A stretch of 64,000 nt of DNA from Flavobacteriales bacterium. Lineage in GTDB: Bacteria; Bacteroidota; Bacteroidia; Flavobacteriales; BACL11. Position numbers and translations under genes: made by a program. The notes below the pieces were generated by a model that searched no databases, had not been told where the DNA came from, and saw only the letters and a list, made by a program, of their open reading frames with translations. Positions 1,607 through 47,929 of this stretch are shown here, piece after piece (within the stretch, counting starts at the first letter, position 1; the number at the start of each line of letters is the position of its first letter). Where the stretch lies: positions 11,186 through 75,185 of the forward strand of contig NZWA01000041.1 of the NCBI GenBank assembly GCA_002697505.1, given 5' to 3'.

Positions 1607-3430
1607 ATGTGGTACGTGCATGAAAAATATAAAAGAGAAGTAACGGACACAAATCTGGAGCTTTTGGATTTAAAAGGCGAGCTAGATTCTAAACAAGCTA
1701 AGATATCTCTTGCTAAGTTTTTAAGAGCAAACTTGGGTTTTACTGTAGAGTTAATCTCAGGAATAAAACTTGCGCCGTTTCAAGAAGTTACTCTCAAAGG
1801 TTTCTTTAATAGGAACTTTAATATGTGTGTCTGGGGGCGCGGATGCGGTAAGACTTTTATCGCATCCGTGTACTGTTTTTTACAATGCATCTTCGAGCCG
1901 AATACAAAAATCCTTATAGCTGGCCCGACATTTCGTACTGCTAGATTTATATTTCAAAACCTTGAAAAGATAGTAGAGACTAAGGGCGCAGAGCTGCTAG
2001 CTCAAGCTTTCGGGGCTAAATCTAAACGTAACGATCAGTTCGAATGGAGGATAAACGGCGGAAGCATCACAGCGATTCCTTTGAGCGGCGAAAAGATTCG
2101 TGGTTTCCGTGCGAACATTCTTGTACTTGACGAGTACCTGCTATTACCAGAAGAGACTATTAAAACAGTTCTTATGCCGTTCTTGGTTGCACCGCAAGAC
2201 ATGGCAGAAAGAATTAGAGTTAGAGAAATAGAAGACTCTTTAATCAAGAACGGTAAGATGGAAGAAAAAGATAGGATGGTGTTTGAAAACAAATCAAAAA
2301 TGATAGCGCTATCTTCTGCAAGCTACAGTTTCGAGAATCTTTATAAAACATACAAAGAGTGGATGGGTAATATCTACTCCGATGATATGCTTGATTCTAA
2401 ATATTTTATATCTCAAATGGGGTTTGACTCTGTTCCAGAAGATATGATTGATAAAACTGTTATTGAAGAAGCTCAATCAGGAGGTAGTTCTAACTCTTCT
2501 TTCCAAAGAGAATATAGAGCGCAATTTACAGACGGAAGTGATAGTTATTTTAGCGCAAAAAAGATGCACGAGTGCACTGTGCCGGACGGAGAAGCCCCGC
2601 ACACTTTAATTGCTGGCAATCCAGAAAAAGAGTACATACTTGGTATAGACCCTAGTTTTAGTAATAGCCCTAGCTCTGATTATTTTGCGATGTCGCTTAT
2701 TGAGTTAGATGAAGACTCTTATACTTTAGTTCATTCATACGCTGTCGCAGGAGGCGATCTAAAAAATCATATCAAATATCTTTTTTACTTATATAAAAAT
2801 TTTAATATCAAGATGATAATTATTGATAATGCTGGATATCAATTTATCGATAGTGCTAATGAGTCTGAAATATTTAGAGAAGCTGGGTTAGAGATTAAGT
2901 TTTTTGACTTTAATACAGAAAAACAAGGCGTGGCTTACGATCAAGAACTTAAAAAAGTTAAAAGAACTTACAGCCCCAAAGACAACGTAGTTTGTTTTAA
3001 GCAAGTGTTTAGTTCTGATTTTTTAAGAAACGCTAATGAATACTTACAATCTTGCATAGATCATAAGAAAATATTTTTTGCTTCTAGAACTGCTGCATCG
3101 GGAAGCTTCTTCTCAAGGTTGTCATCCACTAAGATACCGCTAAAGCTAACTCACTTTAACGATATAGGAGAAATGATAGAAACTCAGGATGACTTGATCT
3201 ATCAAACTAAGAAACAATGCGCGCTAATTGAAGTTAAGTCTACCGCAAAAGGTACGCAAAGTTTTGACCTGCCACAACATCTTCGTAGGAGCAACTCTGC
3301 CAATCGCGCAAGAAAAGATAATTACACAACATTAATGTTAGGCAATTGGGCAGTGAAAGCATATAATGATATGAGGAATGTAAAAGTTGAAGAAGTTAAC
3401 GCGACTTTTGTTCCAAGAATGATTGATTAA
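1607..3430 (+). CDS. terL: Terminase large subunit
   Basis: 607 aa. Walker A-like GRGCGKT and Walker B-like ILVLDEY are present. A C-terminal nuclease-sized domain follows. The gene lies directly upstream of the portal candidate. Confidence 0.85.
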   Translation: MWYVHEKYKREVTDTNLELLDLKGELDSKQAKISLAKFLRANLGFTVELISGIKLAPFQEVTLKGFFNRNFNMCVWGRGCGKTFIASVYCFLQCIFEPNTKILIAGPTFRTARFIFQNLEKIVETKGAELLAQAFGAKSKRNDQFEWRINGGSITAIPLSGEKIRGFRANILVLDEYLLLPEETIKTVLMPFLVAPQDMAERIRVREIEDSLIKNGKMEEKDRMVFENKSKMIALSSASYSFENLYKTYKEWMGNIYSDDMLDSKYFISQMGFDSVPEDMIDKTVIEEAQSGGSSNSSFQREYRAQFTDGSDSYFSAKKMHECTVPDGEAPHTLIAGNPEKEYILGIDPSFSNSPSSDYFAMSLIELDEDSYTLVHSYAVAGGDLKNHIKYLFYLYKNFNIKMIIIDNAGYQFIDSANESEIFREAGLEIKFFDFNTEKQGVAYDQELKKVKRTYSPKDNVVCFKQVFSSDFLRNANEYLQSCIDHKKIFFASRTAASGSFFSRLSSTKIPLKLTHFNDIGEMIETQDDLIYQTKKQCALIEVKSTAKGTQSFDLPQHLRRSNSANRARKDNYTTLMLGNWAVKAYNDMRNVKVEEVNATFVPRMID

Positions 3431-3437
3431 GTGTAAT
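3430..3437 (+). promoter_or_regulatory. AGTGTAAT motif upstream of the portal gene
   Basis: Exact 8-mer, 11 nt before the ATG at 3449, in the short terL-portal gap. Confidence 0.45.
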
Positions 3438-3448
3438 TTAAAGTTAAA

Positions 3449-6828: not shown

Positions 6829-6830
6829 AA

Positions 6831-6840
6831 AGTGTATAAT
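6831..6840 (+). promoter_or_regulatory. AGTGTATAAT variant of the recurrent motif
   Basis: Lies in the 28-nt gap before the fibre gene. An AAGGA Shine-Dalgarno-like sequence and the ATG at 6857 follow. Confidence 0.4.
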
Positions 6841-6856
6841 AATATAGGAATAAGGA

Positions 6857-10002: not shown

Positions 10003-10022
10003 GCCGTGTAATAGATTTTGGT

Positions 10023-10601: not shown

Positions 10602-10604
10602 ATT

Positions 10605-10910: not shown

Positions 10911-10985
10911 AGTATTAAATGCACTTTAAACGTGCTACACTCTAGAAGTGTTTTAACGACGATCTGCAAAGATACTTAGAATCGC

Positions 10986-11012
10986 ACCCGCTCTTTATGA
11001 GCGGGTTTTTTT
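10986..11012 (+). terminator. Rho-independent terminator
   Basis: Stem ACCCGCTC / GAGCGGGT, loop TTTAT, then a 7-T run. Confidence 0.8.
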
Positions 11013-11030: not shown

Positions 11031-11040
11031 GTGTATAAAT
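11031..11040 (+). promoter_or_regulatory. GTGTATAAAT variant of the recurrent motif
   Basis: Lies just after the terminator and 7 nt before the GTG start at 11048. It contains TATAAATA. Confidence 0.35.
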
Positions 11041-14141: not shown

Positions 14142-14711
14142 ATGGCAAATGAAAGACTAATGCCCTTCCGGGATTATGATGAGCACGATGTCATCAATTT
14201 GTTTGCGTTTGGTGATACAGCTGTTGTTCTTAATGATTCAACCACCGTTGAGGCTGGTTCAGTCGTTAAGATTAAGACTGGCTGGAAAAACACCGACGAA
14301 ACGCAACTTTTGACTGACGTTGGAGCTTCTTACAATAACGTTGTTTCTCAACGTTATGGCGTTAACGCAGAGGTCGAGTACGCAAATGGTGGCGATGAGA
14401 CACCACTTGGTATTCTTCTTTATGACGTTAGAGAGTTCGACGAAAATGGCGAAAGACTTAAATTCAATCCGCAGAAAGCTGCTGAACTTAACGCAGCTAT
14501 CAGTGGTCAGGCCGTGCCGATTGCTACGAGAGGTATTTTCCTCTTCGCTACTGGCGCGTTCACTGCTGCTGGCTCTGTTGGTGCTGGGTCTAACCTTTAC
14601 GCTAGTGGTGATGGCAAATTAACCTCGACAGTTGCTGAAAACACGAAGGTTGGTAAAGCTATTGGTGACCCTGATGCTGATGGTAGCGTCTTGGTGAAAC
14701 TTGAACTGTAA
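14142..14711 (+). CDS. Head decoration / capsid accessory protein (by position)
   Basis: 189 aa, Gly/Ala-rich, between the scaffold gene and the major capsid gene. Confidence 0.45.
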   Translation: MANERLMPFRDYDEHDVINLFAFGDTAVVLNDSTTVEAGSVVKIKTGWKNTDETQLLTDVGASYNNVVSQRYGVNAEVEYANGGDETPLGILLYDVREFDENGERLKFNPQKAAELNAAISGQAVPIATRGIFLFATGAFTAAGSVGAGSNLYASGDGKLTSTVAENTKVGKAIGDPDADGSVLVKLEL

Positions 14712-14730
14712 TTAATAGGAGAATTATAAA

Positions 14731-15870
14731 ATGAAGTTAAAATTTAAAGAAACTCCAGAACAAGTTGAATTGATCAAAGCGATGGGCTCTAAACGCCCAG
14801 AGGTTTCTCGCGAAGCTTCCGAGGCTTTTGCAGCTTTTATTGGCCCTGTTATCCAGCAGGTGCTTCTTCAAGCTGACACAGCTTCGTCTGTTTATTCCGA
14901 CGTTGTTTACGACGAAGACGACAATCCGAGCTACCCGCTCGATTTGTTTTTCGAGCAGAGAAATGCTGATAACTACGTTTCTGTAGTGCAGCAGAATATC
15001 GCTGGTGGTCTTCCGAGCTCTCAAATTGCTGGCGCAAACGAGTTGAAGGTAGCTACCTACAAGCTCGACGCTGCCGTTAGCTTTTTGAAGAAGTATGCTC
15101 GCCGCGGTCGTCTTGACGTAGTTAGCAAGGCTGTTGAGCGTATGGCTCAGGAAGTCTTGGTGAAGCAAGAGCGCAATGCGTGGGCGGTTATCCTTAAAGC
15201 TCTCTCTGAGGGTAAAGGTACTGGTTCTAGCAATGGTGCTCACATTGTTAATAACGTTGGTAGCACTGAAACCTTCCAGCTCGATACCTTGAATGCGATG
15301 ATTACTCGTATGAAGCGCATCAACAAGTCGTTCGCTGGCGGTACTGCTGCTCAGGTCTACTCCGAAGGCATCACTGATCTCTTCGTCAGCCCTGAAGTTA
15401 AGCAAGATATCAGAGCGTTCTCATATTCTCCGATTGGTAATAACGCTAATCAGAACATTCCTGATGACGCGAAGAGCGACGCTTATAGAGCTGCTGGTAT
15501 TGCTAATATCTTCGGTATTAACATTATCGACTTGCAGGAACTCGGTGTTGGTCAGAAGTACAATACATTGTACGAGACCTTCAGTGACTCCGCTGGTTTG
15601 GCTGGCGCTGTTAACGAGGCTGGTGCTACAACCACTTCCGCGTTTAACGACGGTTCTAGCCACGAGTTGGTGCTCGGTGTGGATGCTAGCCGCGAGGCTC
15701 TTATTCGCCCAGTTGCTCGTAACTCTGAGTCTGGCGCAACGTTCAGCGCATTGCCGGATGACCAGTTCACTCAACGTGCCGATAAGACCGGTTTCTACGG
15801 TTCTGTCGAAGAGGGTCGTGTTTGTATCGACGCTCGCGTGCTTGTTGGTGGTCACCTCAAGCGTTCTTAA
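14731..15870 (+). CDS. Major capsid protein (candidate)
   Basis: 379 aa with an AGGAG Shine-Dalgarno sequence. It follows the scaffold and decoration genes and is followed by a strong terminator. Confidence 0.7.
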   Translation: MKLKFKETPEQVELIKAMGSKRPEVSREASEAFAAFIGPVIQQVLLQADTASSVYSDVVYDEDDNPSYPLDLFFEQRNADNYVSVVQQNIAGGLPSSQIAGANELKVATYKLDAAVSFLKKYARRGRLDVVSKAVERMAQEVLVKQERNAWAVILKALSEGKGTGSSNGAHIVNNVGSTETFQLDTLNAMITRMKRINKSFAGGTAAQVYSEGITDLFVSPEVKQDIRAFSYSPIGNNANQNIPDDAKSDAYRAAGIANIFGINIIDLQELGVGQKYNTLYETFSDSAGLAGAVNEAGATTTSAFNDGSSHELVLGVDASREALIRPVARNSESGATFSALPDDQFTQRADKTGFYGSVEEGRVCIDARVLVGGHLKRS

Positions 15871-15892: not shown

Positions 15893-15920
15893 CCCGTCGA
15901 CTTCGGTCGGCGGGGTTTTT
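15893..15920 (+). terminator. Rho-independent terminator
   Basis: A 9-bp GC-rich stem (CCCGTCGAC / GTCGGCGGG, with one G-U pair), a UUCG tetraloop, then a T5 run. Confidence 0.8.
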
Positions 15921-15978
15921 ATTTCTATTTATTAGATTATTTGTGTATTTTATATATAATAAGGAAAGGTTAAAGGTT

Positions 15979-16338
15979 ATGGCAGTTAAAAGGAAAAAGA
16001 AAAGTTTAGATAGTATTAATCAAACTCATGCTAAGGTAGAAAAGAAGTTTGAACCAACAACTCTAGATCAAATCTGGGGAGATGATGGAGCTTCTGAATA
16101 CGGAACTTTAGATTACCAAAGCTATCAAGAAAAAATCTTCGACATGAATATGTCGGATCTTCAAGCTCACGCTTCTCGTGTTGGTATTGTTCCCATCGAC
16201 AATAGAAATATGTTAACAGATAGACTTTTAAGAGAGTTTAGTAAACATGTTTCATCTTTTAGGAAACCTGTCGAAGACTTGGGGGAACAGCAAAACATTC
16301 CTAAGAAAATTAAAGATATCTTAGCAGAGGGAAGGTAG
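15979..16338 (+). CDS. Hypothetical protein
   Basis: The preferred start is MAVKRKKKS at 15979, preceded by AAGGAAAGG...AAAGG. The ORF-track start at 15943 lies in the AT-rich promoter-like spacer. Confidence 0.5.
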   Translation: MAVKRKKKSLDSINQTHAKVEKKFEPTTLDQIWGDDGASEYGTLDYQSYQEKIFDMNMSDLQAHASRVGIVPIDNRNMLTDRLLREFSKHVSSFRKPVEDLGEQQNIPKKIKDILAEGR

Positions 16339-16827: not shown

Positions 16828-16835
16828 AGTGTAAT
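16828..16835 (+). promoter_or_regulatory. AGTGTAAT motif
   Basis: Exact 8-mer preceded by an A-run, 12 nt before the ATG at 16848. Confidence 0.45.
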
Positions 16836-21249: not shown

Positions 21250-21257
21250 AGTGTAAT
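21250..21257 (+). promoter_or_regulatory. AGTGTAAT motif
   Basis: Exact 8-mer after an A-run, 14 nt before the ATG at 21272. Confidence 0.45.
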
Positions 21258-26072: not shown

Positions 26073-26080
26073 AGTGTAAT
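26073..26080 (+). promoter_or_regulatory. AGTGTAAT motif
   Basis: Exact 8-mer, 13 nt before the GTG at 26094, with AAGGA between them. Confidence 0.45.
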
Positions 26081-29188: not shown

Positions 29189-29191
29189 AAA

Positions 29192-30316: not shown

Positions 30317-30321
30317 AAAAA

Positions 30322-30329
30322 AGTGTAAT
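30322..30329 (+). promoter_or_regulatory. AGTGTAAT motif
   Basis: Exact 8-mer after an A8 run, 13 nt before the ATG at 30343, with AAGGA between them. Confidence 0.45.
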
Positions 30330-30342
30330 TAAACTCTAAGGA

Positions 30343-33300
30343 ATGGCAACGGAAATTAAAAAGTTAAGACCGGAAAGTATAAGGACCACAGGTGCATCGG
30401 CTAATGACGTGCTCACTATTAGTGGCGGCGAAACAGTTTTCGCAAATGAACTTTCTTTGTCTGGCTTGAATATCGGCACTTCTGAGTCGGTAGCTGGTAA
30501 AAAACTCAATATAGTTGGTGATGTAGAGATTTCCGGAACTCTTTTCCAAAGCGGTGATATTTTCACTTCAAGCCCAGATTTAACCCAATCTGGATTCCTT
30601 ACCGAAGAAAGTACTTCTGGTACATACTCTACTCAATTTAATGTAACTGCAGGAGGAGGTGTCTATTACGTAAGTGAGATAACTGCGGGAAGCCATACAA
30701 CAACTTCACAAGTTCAACAGTTGGAGCTGTATTTACAAAGAGGAAACTCCTACAAATTTACTACTGACTCCAGCACTAATGGCCATCCTCTTATTGTTGT
30801 TACCCAAGGCGGAGGAGGAGGTTATACATATGAGTACACTTCCGGGGTAACAAATTCCAGAGCTCAAAACGGCGGAATACTTTATTTCAGAGTTCCTCAA
30901 TCTGCCCCTGACACTCTTTATTATCAATGTGGCGTTCATAGTAATATGGGCGCAGCTATCAATATCGTAGGGGCAAGTGGGGCTACGGGACCTACTGGAC
31001 CTACTGGACCTACAGGTCCTACTGGCCCAACGGGTCCTACTGGACCAACTGGCCCAACCGGCCCTGCTGGCTCAGATGGCTCAGATGGAGCTACAGGACC
31101 AACCGGACCAACTGGGCCAACCGGACCAACTGGACCGACTGGGCCATCCGGAGCAACAGGTGCAACTGGTCCTGCAGGTCCTACAGGACCAACCGGTCCC
31201 ACCGGCCCATCAGGCGCGACAGAAAACCTTTCTGCTTCAGGCTTTGTAGATTCATCGACAAATCAAACAATCGGTGGCAATAAGACTTTCATAAATGATG
31301 TTTCTATTAATAATTTAACTGTAACAGGAACTACGACGACAGTAAATACTACTGACCTTAATGTTAAAGATAATATAATTAAGATAAACAGCGGTGAGGC
31401 TGGCGCAGGTATTAGTTTAAATTCTGGAGGACTAGTAATAGATAGAGGTAGCGCTACTGATGCAAATATTTTATTTAATGATACTACTGATAGGTTTGAA
31501 GTAAACTTCCCTATAGCTACAGAAGGAACTTTAATACCGACTGCTTTTACTGGATTAACTGATACTCCCGGTTCAATTACAGCTGGGCAAGTTTTAGTAG
31601 GTAGCGGAAGTAGTATTACTTTTTCTGGTACAGACGCTCTTGTTGGCCCAGCAGGATCTACGGGTCCGACTGGACCAACGGGACCAACAGGTCCTAGCGG
31701 CGCAACTGGCGCAGCTGGCTCGACTGGCCCTACTGGCCCTACTGGTCCAACAGGGCCTACAGGTCCAACAGGCCCAACGGGTCCGACTGGGCCTGCGGGA
31801 GCAGGTGGAGGCGGAGGAGCTTCGGCAACTCTAACCTCAGATACTTTTACAGCTAACGGAGCGCTTACTGGATTTTCACTTTCTCTTACTCCTTCAGGAG
31901 TAAACAGTATATTAGTAAGTATTGGTGGCATACTTCAAACCCCAACTACAAACTATGTATTAGATGGTAGCACTCTTAATTTAACAAGTGCACCTCCTTC
32001 TGGAGCAGAAATAGAAGTAAGAAATTTAGACTATCAAGGTGCTAGTGGCGCGACTGGCGCAACTGGTCCAGCCGGTCCGACAGGCCCAACGGGTCCTACC
32101 GGCCCAGCGGGTGCGACTGGCCCTAGTGGCGCGACAGGCGCTACAGGTCCCGCCGGTCCCGCCGGAGCAGACGGCGCAACAGTAACTGGCGTCGGGATAG
32201 CTTTCAGTCAAACTTTTACAGGTGACGGAACTACAGCAAATTACGCTCTTAATGCAGGGATTAACACTACTAAAGACGTATTAGTTTCAATTCAAGGATA
32301 CGTTCAAACTCCAGATATAGATTATACTTTATTAGGGACTACAGGAATATCCTTTAGCACGGGTGTTATGAATGGGCATGAAGTAAACATTCGTCATCTT
32401 GCTATGGGGCCAAGCGGCGTTGCGGGAGCGACAGGTCCAACAGGCCCAGCGGGTTCGACAGGGCCTAGCGGTGCGACTGGCGCGGCTGGCCCAACGGGTC
32501 CAACAGGCCCTGCAGGTTCAACTGGTCCGACTGGCCCAACTGGTCCTACGGGGCCAACCGGTCCCACCGGCCCATCAGGAGCGACAGAAAATTTGTCTGC
32601 TTCTGGCTTTATAACAACTGGAGACACAGGGAATTTTGCTGATACGACCATATTAGAAAGTTTTTCTCAGGGGTTAAACGTTGGTACTAGTTCTAATTTA
32701 GCAAGCAGAAAATTGCACGTCGTTGGTGACGTAGAGATTTCAGGAACTATCTTCCAAAGTGGCTCAGTATTTGAAGGCGGCGGTGGAGGCGGTGGCTCAT
32801 CTACTTTCGTAGGGTTAAGTGATACCCCGGGAAGCTTTACAGCCAATAAATATGTTAGAGTTAATTCGGCAGGCAACGCTTTAGAATTTACAGAAACTGT
32901 TGGAGGTATAAATAGTACTGATATTTTCACAGGAGATGGATCAGTTTCAGGATTTTTGCTAACTCCTACCGCAGTCACTTCTACAAAAGATTTACTAGTA
33001 TCTATAAATGGTGTTCTTCAAAGACCAGATACTGACTATAGTATTGTAGGTAATACTGGATTATTTTTTAATACTAGTGTTACTAGTGGGTATTTTGTAG
33101 AGGCTAGGCATATAGTTGGAGTGAGCGGCGCGGCAGGTCCAGCGGGTCCAGCGGGTCCAGCGGGTCCATCGGGCGCAAGCGTAACTGGCGTGGGAATAGC
33201 TTTTGATCAGTCTTATACAGGCAACGGGTCAACTACTAACTATGCTTTATCTAGCAGCGTTTCTCATGTTAGGGACTTGTTGGTAGTAGTTGAGGGCATG

Positions 33301-35265
33301 GTCCAATCTCCAACTATAGATTATACTTTAACTGGTAATACAGGCATAGTTTTTACCACCGGAGTTCCAAGCGGGCAAGAATTAAATATTCGTCATCTTG
33401 CGATGGGACCGAGCGGTGTGGCAGGCCCAACGGGTCCGACCGGCCCAGCAGGTTCCACAGGTCCAAGTGGAGCGGATGGGGCTGCGGGGCCAACTGGACC
33501 TACAGGTCCTACGGGTCCGACTGGCCCTAGTGGCGCGACAGGCGCTACAGGTCCCGCCGGTCCCGCCGGAGCAGACGGCGCAACAGTAACTGGTGTTGGG
33601 ATAGCTTTTAGCCAAACATTTACAGGTGACGGAGCTACATCAAATTATGCTCTTAGCGCAGGAGTCAGTGCTACTAAAGACATACTGGTAACAATTCAAG
33701 GATTTGCTCAAACGCCTGACATAGATTATAACTTATTAGGGACAACTGGTATTTCTTTTAATGGAAGTATAATAAGTGGACAAGAAGTTAATGTTAGACA
33801 TCTTGCAATGGGGCCAAGCGGCGTTGCGGGAGCGACAGGTCCAACAGGCCCAGCGGGTTCGACAGGGCCAAGTGGCGCGACTGGCGCGGCTGGCCCTACC
33901 GGTCCGACCGGCCCTACCGGCCCTACCGGTCCGACTGGCCCAAGTGGCGCTACTGGTCCTACGGGTCCGACTGGGCCAACGGGTCCTACTGGCCCTTCAG
34001 CCGCCGCCGCTGTCGAAGGAACGGGAGTTTCTGGCTATGTGGCAAGGTGGGCTAGCGCCGATACTTTAACAAGTGGAGCGCTTTTTGATAATGGAACGAA
34101 TGTTAGTATAGGAACAACAAACGCTAAAGATAAATTTCATGTAAATGGTGGTAATATAATGATTACTGACACTTCGCCAGAACTCACTTTTGAAACGTCT
34201 AATAGTAGTCATTACAACTGGCAAATTGCCGCTCAAGAAAATGTAAGTGATACTCTAGAGTTTTCTGTTGGTAGCGCTGACGCAGATGCATCAAACGACA
34301 CATTTTCGCCAAAAATGGTTATTGCACAGGGAGGCAATATTGGCATAAATCAGACAAATCCGCAAAGAAGGCTCCACGTCGTTGGCGATGTAGAAATTTC
34401 AGGAACTATATTCCAAAGCGGCTCTGTATTTGAAGGAGGCGGAGGCGGAGGAGGCGGATCGTCTACGTTCGTTGGCTTGAGCGACACTCCTGCCAACTTT
34501 ACAAGTTCTGCTAATAAATTCTTAAGAGTTAACGCAGCAGCTAACGCAGTAGAGTTCGCAGACGGAAATGGATTGCTAGATATAACTAGCACGAAGTTCA
34601 CAGGAGATGGATCAACTTCAGGCTATGCTTTGTCTTCGACAGTCAACAGCGCTAGTAACCTAATTGTTACAGTTGGTGGTCTTGTTCAAACTCCAGTAGA
34701 AGATTATACAATAGTTGATGGCACTGGAGTATTTCTAGACGAAAATGTAGTAAGCGGAGCAGTAGTAGAAGTAAGAAAAATATCACAAAATTCTTTTTCT
34801 TCTGACGATTCTGTAGCAGATGCATTCACAGGAGACGGCTCAACTTCAGGCTTCGCTTTGTCATTTAGTCCTAATGATAAAGCCGCAAACGTACTTGTGT
34901 CTCTTAATGGCATTATTCAGCAACCAGATACGGCGTATGTAGTAAATGGGACTACTCTTAATTTTGCTTCTGGCACTGTAGCAAGCGGAGATGTAATTGA
35001 TGCTAGACATATAACAATTGGCCAGTCTGGCGCTTCCGCAGGTTCGGCGAGCATTAGCTATCATCAAGATATATTTACAGGTAACGGAGTCGTATCCGGC
35101 TTTTCAATGGGAAGAACAGTTTCTAATATTCTAGAAACAACTGTATTTGTAAATGGCTTAGCTCAGATATCTGACGTAAACTATTTTGTAGATGGAACAG
35201 GGTTGACTTTTGCTTCTGGTGATATAGCCAGCGGCGATTTAATAATGGTTAGACATGTATACTAA
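30343..35265 (+). CDS. Giant collagen-like fibre with a cupredoxin-like domain
   Basis: 1640 aa. It has seven G-X-Y blocks, eight FTGDG modules, three VGDVEISG hinges, one cupredoxin-like domain (aa ~92-208), and ends in IMVRHVY. Confidence 0.85.
30970..31221 (+). repeat. Collagen-like G-X-Y block 1
   Basis: GAS GAT (GPT)n ... GPS GAT, in frame with the ORF at 30343. Confidence 0.9.
31645..31818 (+). repeat. Collagen-like G-X-Y block 2
   Basis: GPA GST GPT ... GPA GAG GGG. Confidence 0.9.
32038..32181 (+). repeat. Collagen-like G-X-Y block 3
   Basis: [15 protein letters not shown] ... GAD GAT. Confidence 0.9.
32407..32586 (+). repeat. Collagen-like G-X-Y block 4
   Basis: [12 protein letters not shown] ... 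GPS GAT. Confidence 0.9.
33127..33180 (+). repeat. Collagen-like G-X-Y block 5 (short)
   Basis: [18 protein letters not shown]. Confidence 0.85.
33406..33585 (+). repeat. Collagen-like G-X-Y block 6
   Basis: GPS GVA GPT ... GAD GAT. It shares a 76-bp exact repeat with block 3. Confidence 0.9.
33811..33999 (+). repeat. Collagen-like G-X-Y block 7
   Basis: GPS GVA GAT ... GPT GPS. It shares a 62-bp exact repeat with block 4. Confidence 0.9.
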
Positions 35266-36374
35266 TGAAGTTACCTAAATTAACAAATTTATCAGTTACC
35301 GGAACGACGGTTGGAGATGTGCATTTTCCGAAAGTGAAGCTGTTGCTGCCTTTTGATGGTTCGAACGGCGCAACGTCAACTACTGATAGTAGCAACGCTA
35401 ATAACTCAGTGACTTTTGTCGGTACTGCTCAGTTGTCTACGGCGCAAAGTAAGTTTGGTGGGAGTAGCCTTCTACTGGATGGTAATAGCGACTACATATA
35501 TATAGCTAACGATGACTTAGATTTTTCAAGTACTGAAAGTTTTACTCTTGAATTTTGGATCTATTTTAATGATATAGACGATGGAAATATAGTAAATTTT
35601 TACTCTGATTATTCTGGAGCCAGCAACGGAATGTCAATTGATAAGAGTACTAGTAATGTGCTTAGAGCTCACAATGGAGACTCGACCCGTATTACTGGAA
35701 CAACAACAGTTTCAGCTGGCCAATGGTATCACATAGCGCTGTCTGGTACTTCTGGGAGTTATAAATTATTTCTAAACGGAACTCAAGAAGGTAGCACTAG
35801 CAGTAACGGCTTCACAGGCGGCACTACTAATAAGTATATAGGGACTTTCTATTGGGCAGGTCTAGGAGGGGCTGTTCGTCTTGTAAACGGGTATATTGAA
35901 GATTTTCGTATCACGAAAGGTGAAGCACGCTATACTTCAAACTTCACCCCGCCGACTTCCGCCCATTTAACTTCCGCCGGAGACGTTAACAAGCACATCG
36001 TTGTAAACTCGGGCGCTGACGGCGTGGCGATAGGAACTGGCGGCATTTCTCAAGCGCGGATTGCGAAAGCGTGGGCTGATATTGATGGAAGTCAAGCGGC
36101 GGCGAACATGATTGCGTCAAGTTATAACATCAGCAGTATAACCGATAATGCCACAGGGGTATTTTCATTTAACTTTTCGACAGCTATGACCGACGCTAAC
36201 TATAGCGCTGTAACAAGCCTCGGATTAGATGGCGGACTCGCTACCTCTGTAGCTAGTTGTAAATTACAAGACAAGACAACTGCCTTAACTAAAGTAAGAT
36301 GTACTTATCGTAGTTCAGGAGCAGCAACTGATTATGATTATAATATTATATGTTTGATAGTTTTTGGGAATTAA
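35265..36374 (+). CDS. LamG-type fibre-tip paralogue P3 (type A)
   Basis: 369 aa. The start overlaps the fibre stop (TAATG), exactly as for P1. It has the LamG pattern, the hinge block and a VFGN end. Confidence 0.8.
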   Translation: MKLPKLTNLSVTGTTVGDVHFPKVKLLLPFDGSNGATSTTDSSNANNSVTFVGTAQLSTAQSKFGGSSLLLDGNSDYIYIANDDLDFSSTESFTLEFWIYFNDIDDGNIVNFYSDYSGASNGMSIDKSTSNVLRAHNGDSTRITGTTTVSAGQWYHIALSGTSGSYKLFLNGTQEGSTSSNGFTGGTTNKYIGTFYWAGLGGAVRLVNGYIEDFRITKGEARYTSNFTPPTSAHLTSAGDVNKHIVVNSGADGVAIGTGGISQARIAKAWADIDGSQAAANMIASSYNISSITDNATGVFSFNFSTAMTDANYSAVTSLGLDGGLATSVASCKLQDKTTALTKVRCTYRSSGAATDYDYNIICLIVFGN

Positions 36375-36380
36375 AAAAAT

Positions 36381-37547
36381 ATGGCTTTATCAAAATTAAG
36401 ACTAGGACAGTTAAAACCAGCCGACGGATCAACGACGGTTGGAGATGTTTACTTCCCTCAGACAAGTTTATTGTTGCCTTTTGATGGGTCGGACGCAGCC
36501 ACTAGCACTAGTGACTTAAGTAACAGAAATGCAACTGTTACTTTTGCTGGCACGGCTCAATTATCTACTGGACAAAGTAAATTTGGCGGATCCAGTTTGC
36601 TATTAGATGGTAACAGCGACTATGTATCAATTTCTGACAGCTATTGGAATACCGCTTTCGACAGTGGAGATTTTACTGTTGAATGTTGGGTAAGATTTGA
36701 TTCGGGAGTTCTTGATGGCTCCACTTCTGTTGAATTTATGGCGACTAGGGGAAACAGCGGCGGTTCATCAACTAATGGCTGGGGCCTTAGGAAGTATAAT
36801 GATAATTTTATAGCTTGGTATATGCGTATAGGTAGTAGCTGGGTTTATCTTAATTATTCTCAAGGAACTAAAACAACCGTATCAGCGGACACTTGGTATC
36901 ACGTTGCGGTAACAAGAAGTGGTAATACTTGGAAACTATTTTTAAATGGAACAGCCGAAGATACAATCACTAATTCAGGCAGCATAACTTCTGCCAATGG
37001 CGATAGATTCGTTATAGGAGCCTTGGCTGGCGGCAACTTCAGTGGAGATCTCTATATGGATGGCTATATAGAGGACGTTAGAGTCACTATAGGACATGCT
37101 CGTTATACTTCAAATTTCACAGCGCCAACTTCTGCACACTTAACTTCCGCCGGAGACGTCAACAAACACATCGTCGTCAACTCGGACGCTGATGGAGTGG
37201 CGATCGGCACGGGTGGGATAAACCAAGCGCGGATCGCGAAAGCGTGGGCAGAGTTTGATGGGTCAGGTATTACTCTAAACGCATCTTATAACGTAAGCAG
37301 TATTACTGATCATGGTAATAGAGATTATACTATAAACTTTGGTACAGCAATGGCAGACACAAATTATAGTATAGTAGGATCAAACATAGGGCAAAGCTCA
37401 TCCATTTCGTATTATTGGTCTGTGGTCACATCGAGCGGGAATGCAAAAACCACAAGCGGAGTAAGAATAAATATACCACATATTGAGGACAGTAGTTTGA
37501 CAAGTAACGACCCAGACGCAGTAAACGTAATAGCCTTCGGCAATTAA
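36381..37547 (+). CDS. LamG-type fibre-tip paralogue P4 (type B)
   Basis: 388 aa. The N-terminus LSKLRLGQLKPADGSTTVGDVYFPQT matches P2. It has the LamG pattern, the hinge block and an AFGN end. Confidence 0.8.
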   Translation: MALSKLRLGQLKPADGSTTVGDVYFPQTSLLLPFDGSDAATSTSDLSNRNATVTFAGTAQLSTGQSKFGGSSLLLDGNSDYVSISDSYWNTAFDSGDFTVECWVRFDSGVLDGSTSVEFMATRGNSGGSSTNGWGLRKYNDNFIAWYMRIGSSWVYLNYSQGTKTTVSADTWYHVAVTRSGNTWKLFLNGTAEDTITNSGSITSANGDRFVIGALAGGNFSGDLYMDGYIEDVRVTIGHARYTSNFTAPTSAHLTSAGDVNKHIVVNSDADGVAIGTGGINQARIAKAWAEFDGSGITLNASYNVSSITDHGNRDYTINFGTAMADTNYSIVGSNIGQSSSISYYWSVVTSSGNAKTTSGVRINIPHIEDSSLTSNDPDAVNVIAFGN

Positions 37548-37549
37548 AA

Positions 37550-38707
37550 ATGAAAAAGTTACCAATAGATTATTTAGGAGCTTTTGGATCGACAGTTGGA
37601 GACGTACATTTTCCGAAAGTTAAATGGCTGTCGCCTTTCGATGGAACGAACGGCGCGACGACAACGACTGACTCGAGCAACTCTAACTCTTCATTAACTT
37701 TGCAAGGTTCAACTCAGATTTCTACAGCACAAAGCAAATTCGGCGGTAGTAGTATGTATGTGCCAAACAGTGCTCAACAAGGAGTTTACGCTAATGTTGC
37801 TGGGACTACAGTTAATTTAACGGGAGACTTTACTATTGAATGGTGGATAAGAAGAGTGCAGGTTTCGTATGCTAATAGTATGGCGCAACTAATATATGGA
37901 ATGCCATTGGCAGACGATTTAACCGGATATGCTATGGTAGTAGGATACTATGGTTCAAGCGCAAGCACGACTCAGGGTCTTATGTATGTTAGTAGTAATG
38001 GATCTAGTTGGAACGTGGCTTCAGCAGTTCAACTTGGTACCGGCAGCTTAGGGACTGTTGGTCAATGGGTGCATATGGCATTGGTCAGATCTGGTTCTGA
38101 CTGGAGTTATTATGTTGATGGTACAAGGACTTACACTGGGTCTCTTGGTTCTGCTACAATATCGACTCCCGGAAGCTACATGTACCTAGGTAGAGCTTGG
38201 GGCGACGTAAGCTCAATGGAAGCTTACTACGATGACTTTAGGGTTACTCAAGGGCTTGCTCGATACACCGGAGCCTCTTTTACAGTTCCTACTACAGCGC
38301 ATCTGACTTCGGCTGGAGACGTCAATAAGCAGATCGTCGTCAACTCGGACGCGGACGGTGTAGCGATTGGCACAGGCGGAATAAACCAAGCGCGGGTTGC
38401 GAAAGCTTGGATAAACTTTAACGGGTCTGGAACAGTTGCTATAAGAGATAGTTATAATTTCAGCAGCTTGACTGACGATGGAACAGGCTTGTATAAAGCT
38501 AATTTTTCTACCGTTATGTCTGATACTAATTATTCGTTCGTGGCCGAGTCATGTGGCACATTAAATGGTATAAATAATGAAAACGGGTTTACAAACCACG
38601 CGAGGAGAGCTGCCATGTCTACAGATTATATTGGAATAGGCACTAGTGCACACGACGGTACTTTTTATGACGCTACGATAGTAATGGCGCAAGTTTTCGG
38701 GAATTAA
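37550..38707 (+). CDS. LamG-type fibre-tip paralogue P5 (type A)
   Basis: 385 aa with the same architecture and a divergent LamG core. Confidence 0.8.
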   Translation: MKKLPIDYLGAFGSTVGDVHFPKVKWLSPFDGTNGATTTTDSSNSNSSLTLQGSTQISTAQSKFGGSSMYVPNSAQQGVYANVAGTTVNLTGDFTIEWWIRRVQVSYANSMAQLIYGMPLADDLTGYAMVVGYYGSSASTTQGLMYVSSNGSSWNVASAVQLGTGSLGTVGQWVHMALVRSGSDWSYYVDGTRTYTGSLGSATISTPGSYMYLGRAWGDVSSMEAYYDDFRVTQGLARYTGASFTVPTTAHLTSAGDVNKQIVVNSDADGVAIGTGGINQARVAKAWINFNGSGTVAIRDSYNFSSLTDDGTGLYKANFSTVMSDTNYSFVAESCGTLNGINNENGFTNHARRAAMSTDYIGIGTSAHDGTFYDATIVMAQVFGN

Positions 38708-38710
38708 AAA

Positions 38711-39847
38711 ATGAATATAACTAAACCAAGATTAGATCAATTTAAAATAACCGGAAGCACGGTTGGAGATTTGTATTTTCCGAACGTCATCTTTCTTGCC
38801 AAGTTTGATGGCTCAAATGGCAGCACCAGCATCACAGATTCCAGCAACAAAAATAATTCAATAACTGTAAACGGAGGCGCTCAAATTTCGACGGCGGCTA
38901 GTAAGTTCGGCGGGAGTAGTCTTAAACTTGACTATGAAAATGCTGGGACAGGAGATAGATTAGTTGCCGATACAGTGGCGGATAATTTAACGTCAACTAC
39001 TCATACTATAGAGTTTTGGTTTAAAACTGATATGGCAGATGGTCATATCACTAGCCAAAATCCTGCCTTTTTTGGATTTAATGATGCTGGTAGCAGTTAC
39101 GATAATAGACTCGTACTACTAATGTATAGCAAAACCGAACTTCGCTTTTATCGTGGCGTTAGTTATACAGCTTTGACAGTCAGCGCTTTAAATGATGACG
39201 CATGGCATCATATAGCAATTGTTTCTGACGGAACAGATTATGATATATATTTAGATGGCAGCAGAATAAGTTCAGATGCAGGGGATTCTAGGCAAATAAA
39301 TTCAAACGATACTTTTATTATCGGCGCAGAACTGGATTCTGGTCCAAGTACAGGTAATTATTTTAGCGGCTATATAGATGATTTTAGAATTACTAACGCA
39401 GTAGCTAGATATAGTGGAGCTTCTTTCGCTTTACCTACAACGCATCTGACTTCCGAGGGAGATGTCAATAAACACATCGTCGTCAACTCCGATGCGGATG
39501 GAGTGGCGATTGGAACAGGCGGCATTAACCAAGCGCGGATTGCAAAAGCATGGATAAATCTTGACTCAACTCAAGCAGCAGCAAGTATGATAAGGGAAAG
39601 CTATAATGTTAGTAGCATGACGGACACAGCTACAGGCAGATATACTATTAATTTTTCGACTGCTTTATCTAATGCAAACTATTGTTTTGCAGGTAGCGCA
39701 GGAAATAATGCGAGCACAACTACAAACGGTAGGGACATTACAAATGACGGGACAAGAACAACTTCTGCATTGCCGATAAGAGTGACTCGTGACAATGACG
39801 TAGCCGTAGAAGATTCTTATGTAGGAATAATAGTTTTCGGGAATTAA
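38711..39847 (+). CDS. LamG-type fibre-tip paralogue P6 (type A variant)
   Basis: 378 aa with the same architecture (GDLYFPNV...; IDDFRITNAVARYSG; hinge block; VFGN end). Confidence 0.8.
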   Translation: MNITKPRLDQFKITGSTVGDLYFPNVIFLAKFDGSNGSTSITDSSNKNNSITVNGGAQISTAASKFGGSSLKLDYENAGTGDRLVADTVADNLTSTTHTIEFWFKTDMADGHITSQNPAFFGFNDAGSSYDNRLVLLMYSKTELRFYRGVSYTALTVSALNDDAWHHIAIVSDGTDYDIYLDGSRISSDAGDSRQINSNDTFIIGAELDSGPSTGNYFSGYIDDFRITNAVARYSGASFALPTTHLTSEGDVNKHIVVNSDADGVAIGTGGINQARIAKAWINLDSTQAAASMIRESYNVSSMTDTATGRYTINFSTALSNANYCFAGSAGNNASTTTNGRDITNDGTRTTSALPIRVTRDNDVAVEDSYVGIIVFGN

Positions 39848-39850
39848 AAA

Positions 39851-40063
39851 ATGAAAAAAATTTTACTAACTTTTACTTTAATTTTCTCCGGTTGTTCAAC
39901 CGTAGACGATCAAGGTAGGTTGGAAAAAGTCAGAATCGCCGTACCAGCTTTCTTCCAAATAGAAATGGACTACTATAAAGATAAAGAGAACAAAGGCAAG
40001 GGAAGTGTAAGTACTGATACTGTTAACGGTTATCCTAAATTAATGGACATGATAAGAAAATGA
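39851..40063 (+). CDS. Small lipoprotein embedded in the LamG array
   Basis: 70 aa with a signal sequence plus lipobox-like LIFSG|C. It begins at the same TAAAAAATGAA junction used by the paralogues, and its stop overlaps the P7 start (ATGA). Confidence 0.6.
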   Translation: MKKILLTFTLIFSGCSTVDDQGRLEKVRIAVPAFFQIEMDYYKDKENKGKGSVSTDTVNGYPKLMDMIRK

Positions 40064-41163
40064 GTTTTAACGCGCCAGATATAAGACAGTTTAAGTTGAC
40101 CGGAAGTACGGTTGGAGATGTACACTTTCCAAAAGTGAAGCTTCTTTTACCTTTCAATGGCTCAAACGGTGCAACGTCAACGACTGATAGTAGTAATAGT
40201 AATAATTCAGTGACTTTCGTTGGTACTGCTCAAATATCCACGGCGCAAAGCAAGTTCGGCGGCAGCAGTATGTTGTTCGACGGTGATAGCGATTATTTAA
40301 CTGTAACTAATAGTAGTTTTAGCACTTTTAATGCGTCCGGTGCGACGTTTACTATAGAATTTTGGGTTTATTTTAACTCCATAAGTGGACAACAAGACTT
40401 TGTAATGAATTATGCTAGTTCTAGTGGTGGGCTAATAATTAGAAAAACTAGCGGGCATGTCATACAGACAAACTTATCGGGAGATGGTGCTGATATAACT
40501 GGTACGACTACGGTGTCAACTGGCCAGTGGTATCATGTAGCATTATCTGGTTCTAGTGGAAGTTATAAGTTGTTTTTAAATGGTACCCAAGAAGGCAGTA
40601 CTTATACGGGGGCACTTGGGGCTGGTAGTAGTACTTATCAAATAGGAGCCTTTTACTGGTCGAGCACTCTTTATAATCCCCTGAATGGGTACTTGGATGA
40701 TATGCGTTTCACCGCTGGTCTAGCAAGATATACTTCAAACTTTACTCCGCCAACTTCTGCCCATTCAACTTCCGCCGGAGATGCAAATAAACAAATAATT
40801 GTAAACTCCGACGCGGATGGAGTTGATGTAGGAACCGGCGGAATAAACCAAGCACGGATTGCAAAAGCTTGGGTTAATTTTGAGGGAACGGATACCTCTA
40901 ATATAAGGGGTTCTTATAATGTGAGTAGCATTTCTGACAGAGGTACTGGACTATTTACGGTTAATTTTTCGACAGCGATGACTGACGCAAATTATGCCGT
41001 TAATGCTACGAGTGGTCACGGCAGCGATACTGCTACGACGGCAACCGCTCGTACAGGAGGAACTATTTCGACGACGGCTTGCCATATAAGTACTGGTTAC
41101 AGATCAAGCTCTTCGGTGCTTGCAGATATGAACTATAACGCGGTAACATTTTTCGGGAATTAA
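40060..41163 (+). CDS. LamG-type fibre-tip paralogue P7 (type A, closest to P3)
   Basis: 367 aa. It shares GTTTVS.GQWYH.ALSG.SGSYKLFLNGTQEGST with P3. It has the hinge block and an FFGN end. Confidence 0.8.
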   Translation: MSFNAPDIRQFKLTGSTVGDVHFPKVKLLLPFNGSNGATSTTDSSNSNNSVTFVGTAQISTAQSKFGGSSMLFDGDSDYLTVTNSSFSTFNASGATFTIEFWVYFNSISGQQDFVMNYASSSGGLIIRKTSGHVIQTNLSGDGADITGTTTVSTGQWYHVALSGSSGSYKLFLNGTQEGSTYTGALGAGSSTYQIGAFYWSSTLYNPLNGYLDDMRFTAGLARYTSNFTPPTSAHSTSAGDANKQIIVNSDADGVDVGTGGINQARIAKAWVNFEGTDTSNIRGSYNVSSISDRGTGLFTVNFSTAMTDANYAVNATSGHGSDTATTATARTGGTISTTACHISTGYRSSSSVLADMNYNAVTFFGN

Positions 41164-41168
41164 AAAAA

Positions 41169-41196
41169 TTGACTTTTAGCAAAAAAAATCTATAAT
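41169..41196 (+). promoter_or_regulatory. Sigma70-like promoter, TTGACT-N16-TATAAT
   Basis: TTGACT lies at 41169-41174 and TATAAT at 41191-41196. It sits in the gap after the LamG array and is immediately followed by an AGTGTAAT motif. Confidence 0.6.
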
Positions 41197-41197
41197 A

Positions 41198-41205
41198 AGT
41201 GTAAT
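41198..41205 (+). promoter_or_regulatory. AGTGTAAT motif
   Basis: Exact 8-mer, 8 nt before the ATG at 41214. Confidence 0.45.
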
Positions 41206-41213
41206 ATAATAAA

Positions 41214-41450: not shown

Positions 41451-41456
41451 TAAATT

Positions 41457-41729: not shown

Positions 41730-41750
41730 TTTTCCAAAAAAACTTCATAT

Positions 41751-41758
41751 AGTGTAAT
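41751..41758 (+). promoter_or_regulatory. AGTGTAAT motif
   Basis: Exact 8-mer, 9 nt before the ATG at 41768. It sits in and next to the loop of an AT-rich hairpin. Confidence 0.45.
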
Positions 41759-41767
41759 TTATACTAT

Positions 41768-42322: not shown

Positions 42323-42324
42323 AT

Positions 42325-44230: not shown

Positions 44231-44294
44231 TTTTTATTTCTCTTTTGGCGATATTAACTGTAATATCAAATAACAACTTTAAAAAGGTTTTAAC

Positions 44295-45536: not shown

Positions 45537-45556
45537 TATTTAGGAGATAAAACATT

Positions 45557-45772: not shown

Positions 45773-45781
45773 AGTTAGAAA

Positions 45782-45804
45782 AGCCCCCGAAAGGGGGCTT
45801 TTTT
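45782..45804 (+). terminator. Rho-independent terminator
   Basis: Stem AGCCCCC / GGGGGCT, GAAA loop, T6 run. Confidence 0.85.
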
Positions 45805-45856
45805 ATTATTTTTGTGTGTAATTATTTATAGGTAAAAGGTACAGTAAAGGTATATT

Positions 45857-46087
45857 ATGGAAAAAGATATTGTCGAAAACTTTTTCTCGTTTCAGTTAAA
45901 GAGAAAAATTACAGGATTATACAAGTCCTTCTTCTTCATTCTAGAAGATTTAAATTCAGAAGGTATAAAGATTCCCGAAGAAAACTATAAAAGAATACGC
46001 AAACGTATCCTTGATCAAGGGAACGATACTATTCGCGAGCTAGAAGAATATTTTGACAAATATCTTGAATTCCATAAAAATAAATAA
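45857..46087 (+). CDS. Small hypothetical protein in the tail-chaperone position
   Basis: 76 aa. First gene after the terminator and a TGTGTAAT variant motif at 45815-45822. Confidence 0.4.
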   Translation: MEKDIVENFFSFQLKRKITGLYKSFFFILEDLNSEGIKIPEENYKRIRKRILDQGNDTIRELEEYFDKYLEFHKNK

Positions 46088-46088
46088 G

Positions 46089-46868: not shown

Positions 46869-46890
46869 TTTAGTTGTGTTAAAACCAAAT

Positions 46891-46916
46891 GCCCCCCTTA
46901 ACCGGGGGGCTTTTCT
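46891..46916 (+). terminator. Terminator-like GC hairpin between the chaperone-position genes
   Basis: Stem GCCCCCC / GGGGGGC, loop TTAACC, then TTTTCTTT. Confidence 0.65.
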
Positions 46917-46918
46917 TT

Positions 46919-47917
46919 ATGGAAAAACAGTATCTAAAGTTAATATTTTCTGAAATTATAGAAGGGTATTCTTTAGTAAACTCTAAACTGTTTGGGGAAC
47001 TAAAGATTAAACATATTAATAACTTCGATGCTGCAAAAACAGATATAAAAAATCATTACTACTTTGAGAAAGCTGTAGATCAAGGACTGCCAAAACGAGA
47101 AGAAAAGATAGAGTATTTAATTAAAGAGAAACTGTGGGATCCTGAAAAAGATAAAGAAGCTACTCGTTTAGAAGAGATGCTAAAAGGCATGAGAAAGACT
47201 AAATCTAAACTCATACTTCAAACCCAGATAGACGCAATAAAAAAAGAAATAGAGGAAAACGAAAAAAACCTAAATCAAATCTTAGCAGAAAAAGAATCTA
47301 TTATAGGTTTTACCGCAGAAGAATACGCAAATAGAAGAATAAACGAGTATTATATGCATGTGTCTATTTTAGACAAAGATGAAAATCAGTTGTTTAAAGA
47401 AGATGAGTTTGATGAACTAGAGGAAAACCAAGTTCAGGAGATAATGTATGTATACGGCAAAAACAATGAAAAGTTTAAAGCAGAAATTTTAAAAAAAATA
47501 GCTCTGTCAGACTTTTTTACAAATATCTTTTATCTATGCGATGACAATCTCTACAACTTCTACGGAAAGCCTGTAATAAATCTCACTTTTTACCAGATAG
47601 AAATATATAGTTATGGTAGATATTTTAAGAGTATTATTCAGAACTCTGAGGATAAGATTCCAGACCACATAGTAGAAGATCCCGAAAAACTAATAGAGTG
47701 GGCACAGTCTAGCAAGAACGTCAAAGAAGCCCTAGAAAGAAGTTCTGTGGGCGATCAAGAGGGCGCCGCGTCTAGTATCGTAGGAGCTACGACGCAAGAC
47801 CTAGCAAAAGCAGGTATCAACAAAGACGAGGATGTTATAGATATATCTAAAGCCGCGCAAGAAAAAGGCGGTAGATTGACTATGGAAGATATGATGAAAT
47901 TACACGGTGTTAAGTAA
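46919..47917 (+). CDS. Hypothetical protein in the tail-chaperone position
   Basis: The preferred start is MEKQYLK at 46919. The ORF-track ATG at 46889 lies inside the hairpin. Confidence 0.4.
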   Translation: MEKQYLKLIFSEIIEGYSLVNSKLFGELKIKHINNFDAAKTDIKNHYYFEKAVDQGLPKREEKIEYLIKEKLWDPEKDKEATRLEEMLKGMRKTKSKLILQTQIDAIKKEIEENEKNLNQILAEKESIIGFTAEEYANRRINEYYMHVSILDKDENQLFKEDEFDELEENQVQEIMYVYGKNNEKFKAEILKKIALSDFFTNIFYLCDDNLYNFYGKPVINLTFYQIEIYSYGRYFKSIIQNSEDKIPDHIVEDPEKLIEWAQSSKNVKEALERSSVGDQEGAASSIVGATTQDLAKAGINKDEDVIDISKAAQEKGGRLTMEDMMKLHGVK

Positions 47918-47921
47918 AAAA

Positions 47922-47929
47922 AGTGTAAT
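47922..47929 (+). promoter_or_regulatory. AGTGTAAT motif
   Basis: Exact 8-mer after an A-run, 7 nt before the GTG at 47937. Confidence 0.45.

Follow-up and report, generated by a model that had tools for sequence, protein, structure and literature searches.

Bacteriophage phiEco32 transcribes its early genes from host sigma70 promoters, and its middle and late promoters consist of a single AATGTA element, centred at -11.5, that the phage sigma homologue gp36 presumably recognises (PMC12276001). In Deinococcus-Thermus, a -10 element adjacent to an open reading frame (ORF) has been demonstrated experimentally to be a promoter for leaderless mRNA, not a ribosome-binding site (PMC12340547). Here we describe an 8-mer, AGTGTAAT, with the core GTGTAA, which recurs shortly before start codons in a 64,000-nt stretch of contig NZWA01000041.1 (the window) belonging to an uncultured marine phage with a genome of ~170 kb. 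GTGTAA(T/A) is probably a single-element, -10-like promoter without a -35 element, read by the phage's own extracytoplasmic function (ECF)-like sigma factor and producing mRNA leaders of ~1–9 nt, and its closest analogue would be the phiEco32 pair of gp36 and AATGTA. Phage sigma-directed single-element promoters are already known; what is unusual in this case is the fusion of the promoter to start codons.

To define how often the 8-mer occurs, both strands of the window were counted. AGTGTAAT was found nine times on the plus strand (3430, 16828, 21250, 26073, 30322, 41198, 41751, 47922 and 59813) and not once on the minus strand, and every coordinate given for it in a first-pass annotation of the window, which had proposed a late promoter or regulatory element, was correct. 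The expected count was 2.93 ± 1.67, and nine or more copies were reached in none of 100 dinucleotide-preserving shuffles. A gene map made from the ORF list leaves ~905 nt of intergenic DNA in the window; eight of the nine copies lie inside this DNA, or one base over its edge, with a start codon 7–14 nt downstream, in agreement with the placement described earlier. The window was then joined to 8.4 kb of upstream sequence taken from metagenome contigs; these were compared with the window over its first 200 bases and in the TerL protein, and match it there. When the last 30 nt before each of 60 gene starts in this joined sequence were compared, GTGTAA was the most enriched hexamer: it precedes 16 of the 60 genes, which accounts for 16 of the 30 copies counted over both strands (binomial p = 2.5e-22). 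The first-pass annotation had implied that the motif should not be equally common inside genes, and the window total of GTGTAA is indeed only 22 copies versus 31 ± 6 expected, so that the hexamer is depleted wherever no gene start follows. The recurrence of the motif is thus confirmed as real and highly non-random. We considered the scarcity of sense-strand GTGTAA in genes as evidence for a role in RNA and dropped it, because coding constraints are a sufficient cause: the hexamer contains a TAA that can fall in frame, and TGT, a rare codon for Cys. A literature search for the motif string returned primer matches only, and Rfam returned nothing beyond one tRNA.

A position matrix of 57 non-redundant sites reads A-W-W-W-A-GTGTAA-T/A, the core being preceded by A in 39 of them and followed by T in 37 or by A in 15. 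Neither a -35 element (no column from -50 to -10 exceeds 0.21 bits) nor a Shine-Dalgarno (SD) sequence downstream of the motif was detected in this matrix. The earlier statement that no -35 element is conserved therefore holds over these 57 sites, with one exception in the window, a TTGACT-N16-TATAAT sequence at 41169–41196. Tolerance of variation was gauged by the share of copies lying upstream of genes: 40% for GTGTAA, 16% for GTGTAT, which is the second most tolerated form and the core of the variant at 6831, 5% for GTGTAG and 0% for GTGTGA.

Relatives of the window were collected with its terminase, which matched 550 IMG/VR stretches; no nucleotide match to the window was found among cultured phages, and the identity of the terminase to its counterparts in SPbeta-like, phiCD211 and Bacillus phages (large Firmicutes siphoviruses) amounts to only ~24%. 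At orthologous junctions the motif is invariant down to ~50–60% protein identity. The GTGTAA core between TerL and portal is unchanged in 78 relatives with portal N-termini 61–100% identical, while the 3' end of TerL and the spacer vary; some relatives carry GTGTAAA at this place. Orthologues of the first neck-module gene at 48–96% identity keep GTGTAA 9–10 nt before the ATG, and in the lineages at 48–52% identity the motif is kept amid unrelated flanks. Orthologues of the major tail gene have GTGTAA, CTGTAA or ATGTAA ~30 nt upstream together with AAGGA(G). At the tape-measure junction the motif is always present and always follows the upstream stop codon, at distances to the start of 8, 44, 31 and 6 (two copies), or 27 nt, and the long leaders contain an SD sequence. 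Such variation in the distance between motif and start codon at orthologous sites, with an SD-bearing leader in between, favours a promoter acting at the DNA level.

A candidate reader of the motif is encoded next to the window. A 226-aa ORF (L001:7220–7900, ~494–1174 nt upstream of window position 1) ends ~0.5 kb before the window; the gene after it in the operon reaches into the window, where its C-terminal half occupies positions 49–597. The protein matches Pfam Sigma70_r2 with 26.4 bits (cut-off 24). The profile of its family matches region 2 of the ECF sigma factors SigR, SigE, CnrH, SigW and SigH and, weakly, region 4 of SigB and FliA; direct phmmer comparison with the PDB gave spurious matches only. 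The AlphaFold model has a predicted local distance difference test score of 93, and Foldseek aligned ~210 columns of it over both domains, with ECF sigma H, L and E and sigma28 as top matches (probability 0.95–1.0). A sigma4-like domain is thus predicted beside sigma2. Between the two lies a Cys4 insertion with C88, C91, C100 and C110 invariant; D39, H47, K51, W64 and N75 are further invariant columns. The family comprises at least 442 clusters at 50% identity and is without a characterised member. The first gene of the operon encodes a 119-aa zinc-ribbon (DUF2321-like) protein, which could be a partner or an anti-sigma factor.

The leader of the sigma operon has the layout TTGnnn-N16-18-TAnAAT-N5-GTGTAA-N8-9-ATG in ~40 distinct versions, down to 35% protein identity, and GTGTAA also precedes the operon in the distant lineage L107. 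The same tandem arrangement of host-type promoter and motif occurs at window 41169–41205. Autoregulation is typical of ECF sigma factors. Judged from the leader, the operon carries its own cognate motif, which suggests autoregulation in this family too.

Next, distant sigma-family loci were examined. These were fetched with single divergent family members as queries, 40% and 33% identical to the window-adjacent sigma; these values refer to the query proteins, not to the genes matched. In an unbiased k-mer test on these loci (33–42% GC), the top upstream hexamer was GTGTAA or AGTGTA. The order of sigma, X, ERCC4 nuclease, TerL and portal genes is kept in L107, the one distant locus inspected for synteny. 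The hexamer stands upstream of 42 of 216 genes in the sigma lineages versus 4 of 261 genes in 272 kb of sigma-less marine viral loci.

The first-pass annotation had proposed a -10-only late promoter. The -10-only part is the best supported, by the adjoining sigma gene, the conservation at orthologous junctions and the flexible distance with an SD leader; the word late is too narrow. Outside the window the motif, always in the same orientation to the gene, heads PhoH, ankyrin-repeat and mechanosensitive channel-like genes, small-gene operons and the sigma operon, on both strands, and copies directly follow terminator T-runs. Divergent intergenic regions of 44 and 67 nt contain one copy per direction. 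The minus-strand tail-tip operon (M, L, K, I and J), which ends in the window, starts 3.4 kb past the right edge in a 50-nt divergent gap that reads TTACAC-TTTTTA-GTGTAA, and a long leftward small-gene operon further upstream is also headed by the motif. The back-to-back copies in the 44-nt and 50-nt gaps leave no room for another promoter. By its placement, the motif appears to mark a general non-early (middle and late) promoter class and not late genes only.

A different picture is seen in L108:3400–16386, the part of a close relative that corresponds to roughly 11–24 kb upstream of the window start. No gene there is preceded by GTGTAA on the sense strand. Sigma70-type promoter matches number 46 versus 30.4 ± 6.4 in shuffles, TTGACW occurs 27 times versus 15.9 ± 4.2 (none of 200 shuffles reached 27), and there are 35 intrinsic terminators, many of them strong and GC-rich, versus 13.7 ± 3.7. 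The stretch holds small ORFs together with a tRNA-Cys (16096–16169) that has a sigma70-like promoter, and its genes lack both an SD sequence and the motif. TTGACW occurs 59 times in the structural window versus 75 ± 9 expected, which is a deficit if anything. Canonical sigma70 promoters were tried as an explanation there and rejected, since neither the window nor the 10 kb next to it is enriched in them. The L108 stretch is probably an early region transcribed by host sigma-A. If so, the putative early genes with neither SD nor GTGTAA indicate that the motif is no general requirement for translation in this host.

In two relatives that are ~50% identical (L114:5900–5920 and L117:5895–5915), a perfect TATAAT stands 5–6 nt before the ATG of a gene of 359–360 aa. 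This is the layout of a classic leaderless mRNA transcribed from a host-type promoter, and it hints that leaderless messages are tolerated by the host. As for the identity of the host, the NCBI label on protein P0001, which is identical to the sigma, is that of a Flavobacteriales bacterium metagenome-assembled genome, the phage contig having been binned with a Bacteroidota genome. A TerL scan of GTDB genomes gave no match, and the Bacteroidota-type promoter TTTG...TAnnTTTG was found at none of the transcription-unit starts checked. The promoter content as read from the DNA, with TTGACA/TATAAT-type sequences present and TTTG/TAnnTTTG absent, argues against a Bacteroidota host despite the label.

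Taken together, these data are compatible with the following scheme. Host sigma-A would first transcribe the early region from TTGACA/TATAAT-type promoters and would also fire the conserved host-type promoter located 5 nt upstream of GTGTAA in the sigma-operon leader. The two-domain phage sigma, bound to host core RNA polymerase, would then recognise GTGTAA as non-template-strand DNA and redirect the polymerase to the copies before nearly every other transcription unit, boosting its own operon in a positive feedback. Transcription would start ~7–8 nt past GTGTAA, a value obtained by applying the phiEco32 register to this motif, and most leaders would thus measure ~1–9 nt and contain no SD sequence; for a few highly expressed genes the motif would lie 17–45 nt upstream and the leader would carry an SD-like sequence. 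The motif statistics, the conservation, the co-occurrence with the sigma family and the fold of the sigma are observations, from which we infer the reading of the motif by the sigma, the position of the start site and the temporal order.

How does this arrangement compare with the systems it recalls? The resemblance to phiEco32 would reside in a highly diverged phage sigma that sends host core polymerase to one short -10-region element without a -35, as we infer here. AGTGTA and AATGTA agree at five of six positions and have a common TGTA core, and the motif-free, TTGACW-rich region of the relative would correspond to the phiEco32 early genes with host sigma70 promoters. The two systems differ in that the sigma described here has a Cys4 insertion and its candidate promoters abut start codons, and in that a ~170-kb marine phage with a long tape-measure gene is set against a podovirus of E. 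coli. Comparison at the sequence level revealed no similarity to gp36; no gp36 PDB chain was among the matches of the family profile, and it is uncertain whether one has been deposited. No gp79-like co-factor was identified in the present phage.

T4 late promoters, to which the motif had been likened before, carry TATAAATA at -10 and are read by gp55, a sigma2-only protein, together with gp33 and the gp45 clamp. The likeness is a functional one: a -10-only element of ~8 bp in short gaps before many structural genes, with a phage-encoded reader of the sigma family. The consensus differs, being A-GTGTAA-T/A here, and TATAAATA occurs only by coincidence inside the variant at 11031. The predicted reader is ECF-like with sigma2 and sigma4-like domains, unlike gp55, the motif is not restricted to late genes, and there is no sign of coupling to a sliding clamp. 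ECF (group 4) sigma factors are similar in sequence and in their sigma2/sigma4 fold, in the presence of the motif before the sigma's own operon, and in a -10 with a GT(A) core like the CGTA of the sigmaW type; PDB entry 5or5 shows an engineered sigmaE region 2 bound to GTAAAA. They are dissimilar in that here no AAC-type -35 and no anti-sigma factor were identified and the regulon would be most of a phage genome. Leaderless promoters of Deinococcus-Thermus and Actinobacteria likewise have a -10-like element a few nucleotides before the start, in the place of the ribosome-binding site; there it is the housekeeping TANNNT at 6–7 bp from the ORF, and here it is GTGTAA at 8–16 nt, with predicted leaders of 1–9 nt in place of strictly leaderless messages and a phage sigma as the proposed reader.

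If this interpretation holds, six bases are enough to predict where transcription units lie in a widespread family of uncultured marine phages, a family of Cys4-containing ECF-like sigma factors that is uncharacterised gains a candidate promoter, and a second example of phage sigma-driven promoters without a -35 is added. It also suggests near-leaderless mRNA expression on a genome-wide scale. A small sigma with a small promoter could be reused as an orthogonal expression pair.

Several points weigh against a promoter read by the phage sigma. ECF sigma factors normally need an AAC-type -35, and none was detected here despite the predicted sigma4-like domain. Leaders of 1–9 nt without an SD sequence are unusual in most bacteria, and GTG starts are poor on leaderless mRNA in E. 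coli, yet two of the eight exact sites precede GTG. Co-occurrence of sigma and motif could come from a shared host instead. The evidence on the early region is from a related contig, of another assembly than that of the window. The gene at ATG 46919 has a terminator directly upstream and no motif; read-through must occur there, and the argument that a motif following a terminator has to be a promoter is weakened accordingly. Tight nearness to start codons would also be expected of a translation signal, and the low share of SD sequences at short distance is partly trivial, since the motif fills the space in which they would stand. Another transcription factor or polymerase may be encoded within the ~70 kb of the ~170-kb genome that lie outside the inspected part. 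We hold more tentatively to the far-reaching version of the scheme, in which nearly the whole middle and late transcriptome of this abundant phage family comes from a one-element promoter fused to start codons, a family-specific, zinc-binding ECF-like sigma reads it, messages are leaderless or have leaders of at most 9 nt, the promoter also sets the translation start, and the host has no need of SD sequences; this version is possible but doubtful.

The distances themselves are informative for weighing alternatives. GTGTAA lies mostly 8–16 nt from the start codon, with a peak at 8 and an abrupt onset at 8, and 137 of 154 unique sites are within 6–16 nt. The onset at 8 nt is expected if a start codon cannot precede a transcription start located ~7–8 nt past the motif. 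SD-like sequences accompany 29 of the 35 sites with the motif 17–45 nt away versus 5 of the 149 sites at 4–16 nt. Distance alone is compatible with either a promoter or a translation signal. GUGUAA might therefore be an RNA-level translation-initiation element, an SD substitute or enhancer that places ribosomes 8–16 nt upstream of the start in a host with little SD use. The tight distances, spread like SD spacings, the rarity of SD sequences at motif-bearing starts, the strict placement on the coding strand and the presence of the motif between co-directional genes merely 18–28 nt apart would all fit such an element. However, by direct inspection GUGUAA has no complementarity to the anti-SD CCUCC or to the 16S 3' tail, canonical GGAG/AGGA SD sequences occur at other genes of the same phage, and probable early genes must be translated with neither SD nor motif. 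Orthologous motifs that stand 27–44 nt ahead of the start codon and leave an SD sequence in the gap are also difficult to reconcile with ribosome placement, back-to-back copies in gaps of 44–50 nt would push the real promoters into opposing coding regions, and the motif follows a sigma-factor family, not a translation factor. We consider this alternative unlikely.

Recognition of GTGTAA by the host holoenzyme, as an unusual -10 or through a host alternative sigma, with the phage sigma serving another promoter class, appears quite unlikely. It would need no bootstrap, the motif heading the sigma operon and many non-structural genes, and TGTAAT is one mismatch from TATAAT; but that mismatch hits the critical -11 A, and the GTGTAAA of some relatives lacks the -7 T. 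The same phages have a separate TTGACA/TATAAT-type class, and it is a promoter of this class that precedes GTGTAA in the sigma-operon leader. The enrichment analyses yielded no second upstream motif as a possible target of the phage sigma, and the GTGTAA enrichment is absent from sigma-less marine phage loci. Very improbable, in our estimate, is a group of other roles, namely cleavage of the RNA at a processing site, binding of a phage regulator to RNA or DNA with the motif as its operator, or re-initiation of ribosomes on a GUG-UAA start-stop mini-ORF. An intergenic position between cistrons would suit these roles, some divergent gaps contain imperfect palindromes (TTACAC-N6-8-GTGTAA), and the hexamer itself amounts to a GTG start codon with a TAA stop codon right behind it. 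Against them, the spacing of the palindrome arms ranges from 6 to ~40 nt and the motif stands at transcription-unit starts, where no processing is needed. The mini-ORF in particular was ruled out by the tolerance pattern: the best-tolerated variant, GTGTAT, destroys the stop, and alternative stops are not favoured. A promoter read by the phage sigma thus remains our preferred explanation.

The individual sites and the terminators associated with them in the window are as follows.

3430–3437, plus strand: AGTGTAAT, overlapping the TerL stop codon; the portal ATG (3449) is 11 nt on.
6831–6840, plus strand: variant AGTGTATAAT, 16 nt before ATG 6857 of a 905-aa tail or baseplate protein, with AGGAATAAGGA in between.
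10005–10012, plus strand: CGTGTAAT, core GTGTAA, one mismatch to AGTGTAAT, 10 nt before ATG 10023.
10986–11006, plus strand: intrinsic terminator, an 8-bp stem followed by T7.
11031–11040, plus strand: variant GTGTATAAAT, 24 nt past the terminator; GTG 11048 is 11 nt on.
14705–14712, plus strand: one-mismatch copy ACTGTAAT, overlapping the stop of gene 14142–14711, 18 nt before ATG 14731, with an AGGAGA SD between.
15893–15914, plus strand: intrinsic terminator after gene 14731–15870.
15943–15948, plus strand: variant GTGTAT, 28 nt past the terminator.
16828–16835, plus strand: AGTGTAAT, 12 nt before ATG 16848 of a 672-aa tail fibre (phrog_4176).
21250–21257, plus strand: AGTGTAAT, 14 nt before ATG 21272 of a 1599-aa collagen-repeat fibre.
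26073–26080, plus strand: AGTGTAAT, 13 nt before GTG 26094 of a 671-aa Laminin_G_3 fibre protein.
30322–30329, plus strand: AGTGTAAT, 13 nt before ATG 30343 of a 1640-aa collagen-repeat fibre.
41169–41196, plus strand: sigma70-type promoter match TTGACT-N16-TATAAT (11/12), directly abutting the 41198 motif.
41198–41205, plus strand: AGTGTAAT, 8 nt before ATG 41214 of a small cassette (78 aa, and 90 aa matching phrog_20196).
41751–41758, plus strand: AGTGTAAT, 9 nt before ATG 41768 of a 184-aa protein, first gene of a neck or tail module.
44257–44264, plus strand: ACTGTAAT, 30 nt before ATG 44295 of a 413-aa putative major tail protein, with an AAAAGG SD-like leader.
45776–45805, plus strand: strong intrinsic terminator.
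45815–45822, plus strand: TGTGTAAT, core GTGTAA, 10 nt past the terminator and 34 nt before ATG 45857, with an AAAGG leader.
47922–47929, plus strand: AGTGTAAT, 7 nt before GTG 47937 of the 2225-aa tape measure.
59813–59820, plus strand: off-target AGTGTAAT, antisense inside the minus-strand J-like gene, with no start codon near.

All the variants quoted by the first-pass annotation (6831, 11031, 15943, 44257 and 45815) are present, and the copies at 10005 and 14705 are additions to its list; orthologous copies of the 10005 site were found in three relatives (L011, L034 and L035). The single off-target copy that it had noticed, at 59813, is within chance expectation, ~3 copies per window being expected, and is probably a chance copy.

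Two listed gene starts may need revision. The ORF listed from GTG 15943 begins with the GTG of the motif variant itself, and its real start is probably the in-frame ATG 15979, 30 nt downstream of the variant, behind a leader with AAGGAAAGG/AAAGG as SD. The ORF listed from 46889 begins within a strong terminator hairpin at 46891–46910 (GCCCCCCTTAACCGGGGGGC followed by a T-run); its real start is probably the in-frame ATG 46919 right after the T-run, as in the relative L110. Further downstream, the tape-measure gene on the plus strand and the last gene of the tail-tip operon on the minus strand converge with a 4-nt overlap at 54611–54614, a junction at which no strong terminator was found (at most 5 stem pairs).

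Within the structural region, the sequence at 41169–41196 alone comes close to a perfect sigma70-type promoter. It abuts the motif before the small cassette, and the two cassette genes (78 and 90 aa) may therefore also be expressed early. Upstream of this cassette, at window 28109–41163, lie ~7 tandem paralogous genes encoding ~360–390 aa (28109, 29192, 35265, 36381, 37550, 38711 and 40060). The array follows two giant genes for collagen-repeat fibres (1599 and 1640 aa). Around it, copies of the motif precede just these giant genes and that of 671 aa; the array itself contains none, and most of the array junctions checked read ...TTTTCGGGAATTAAAAA-ATG.

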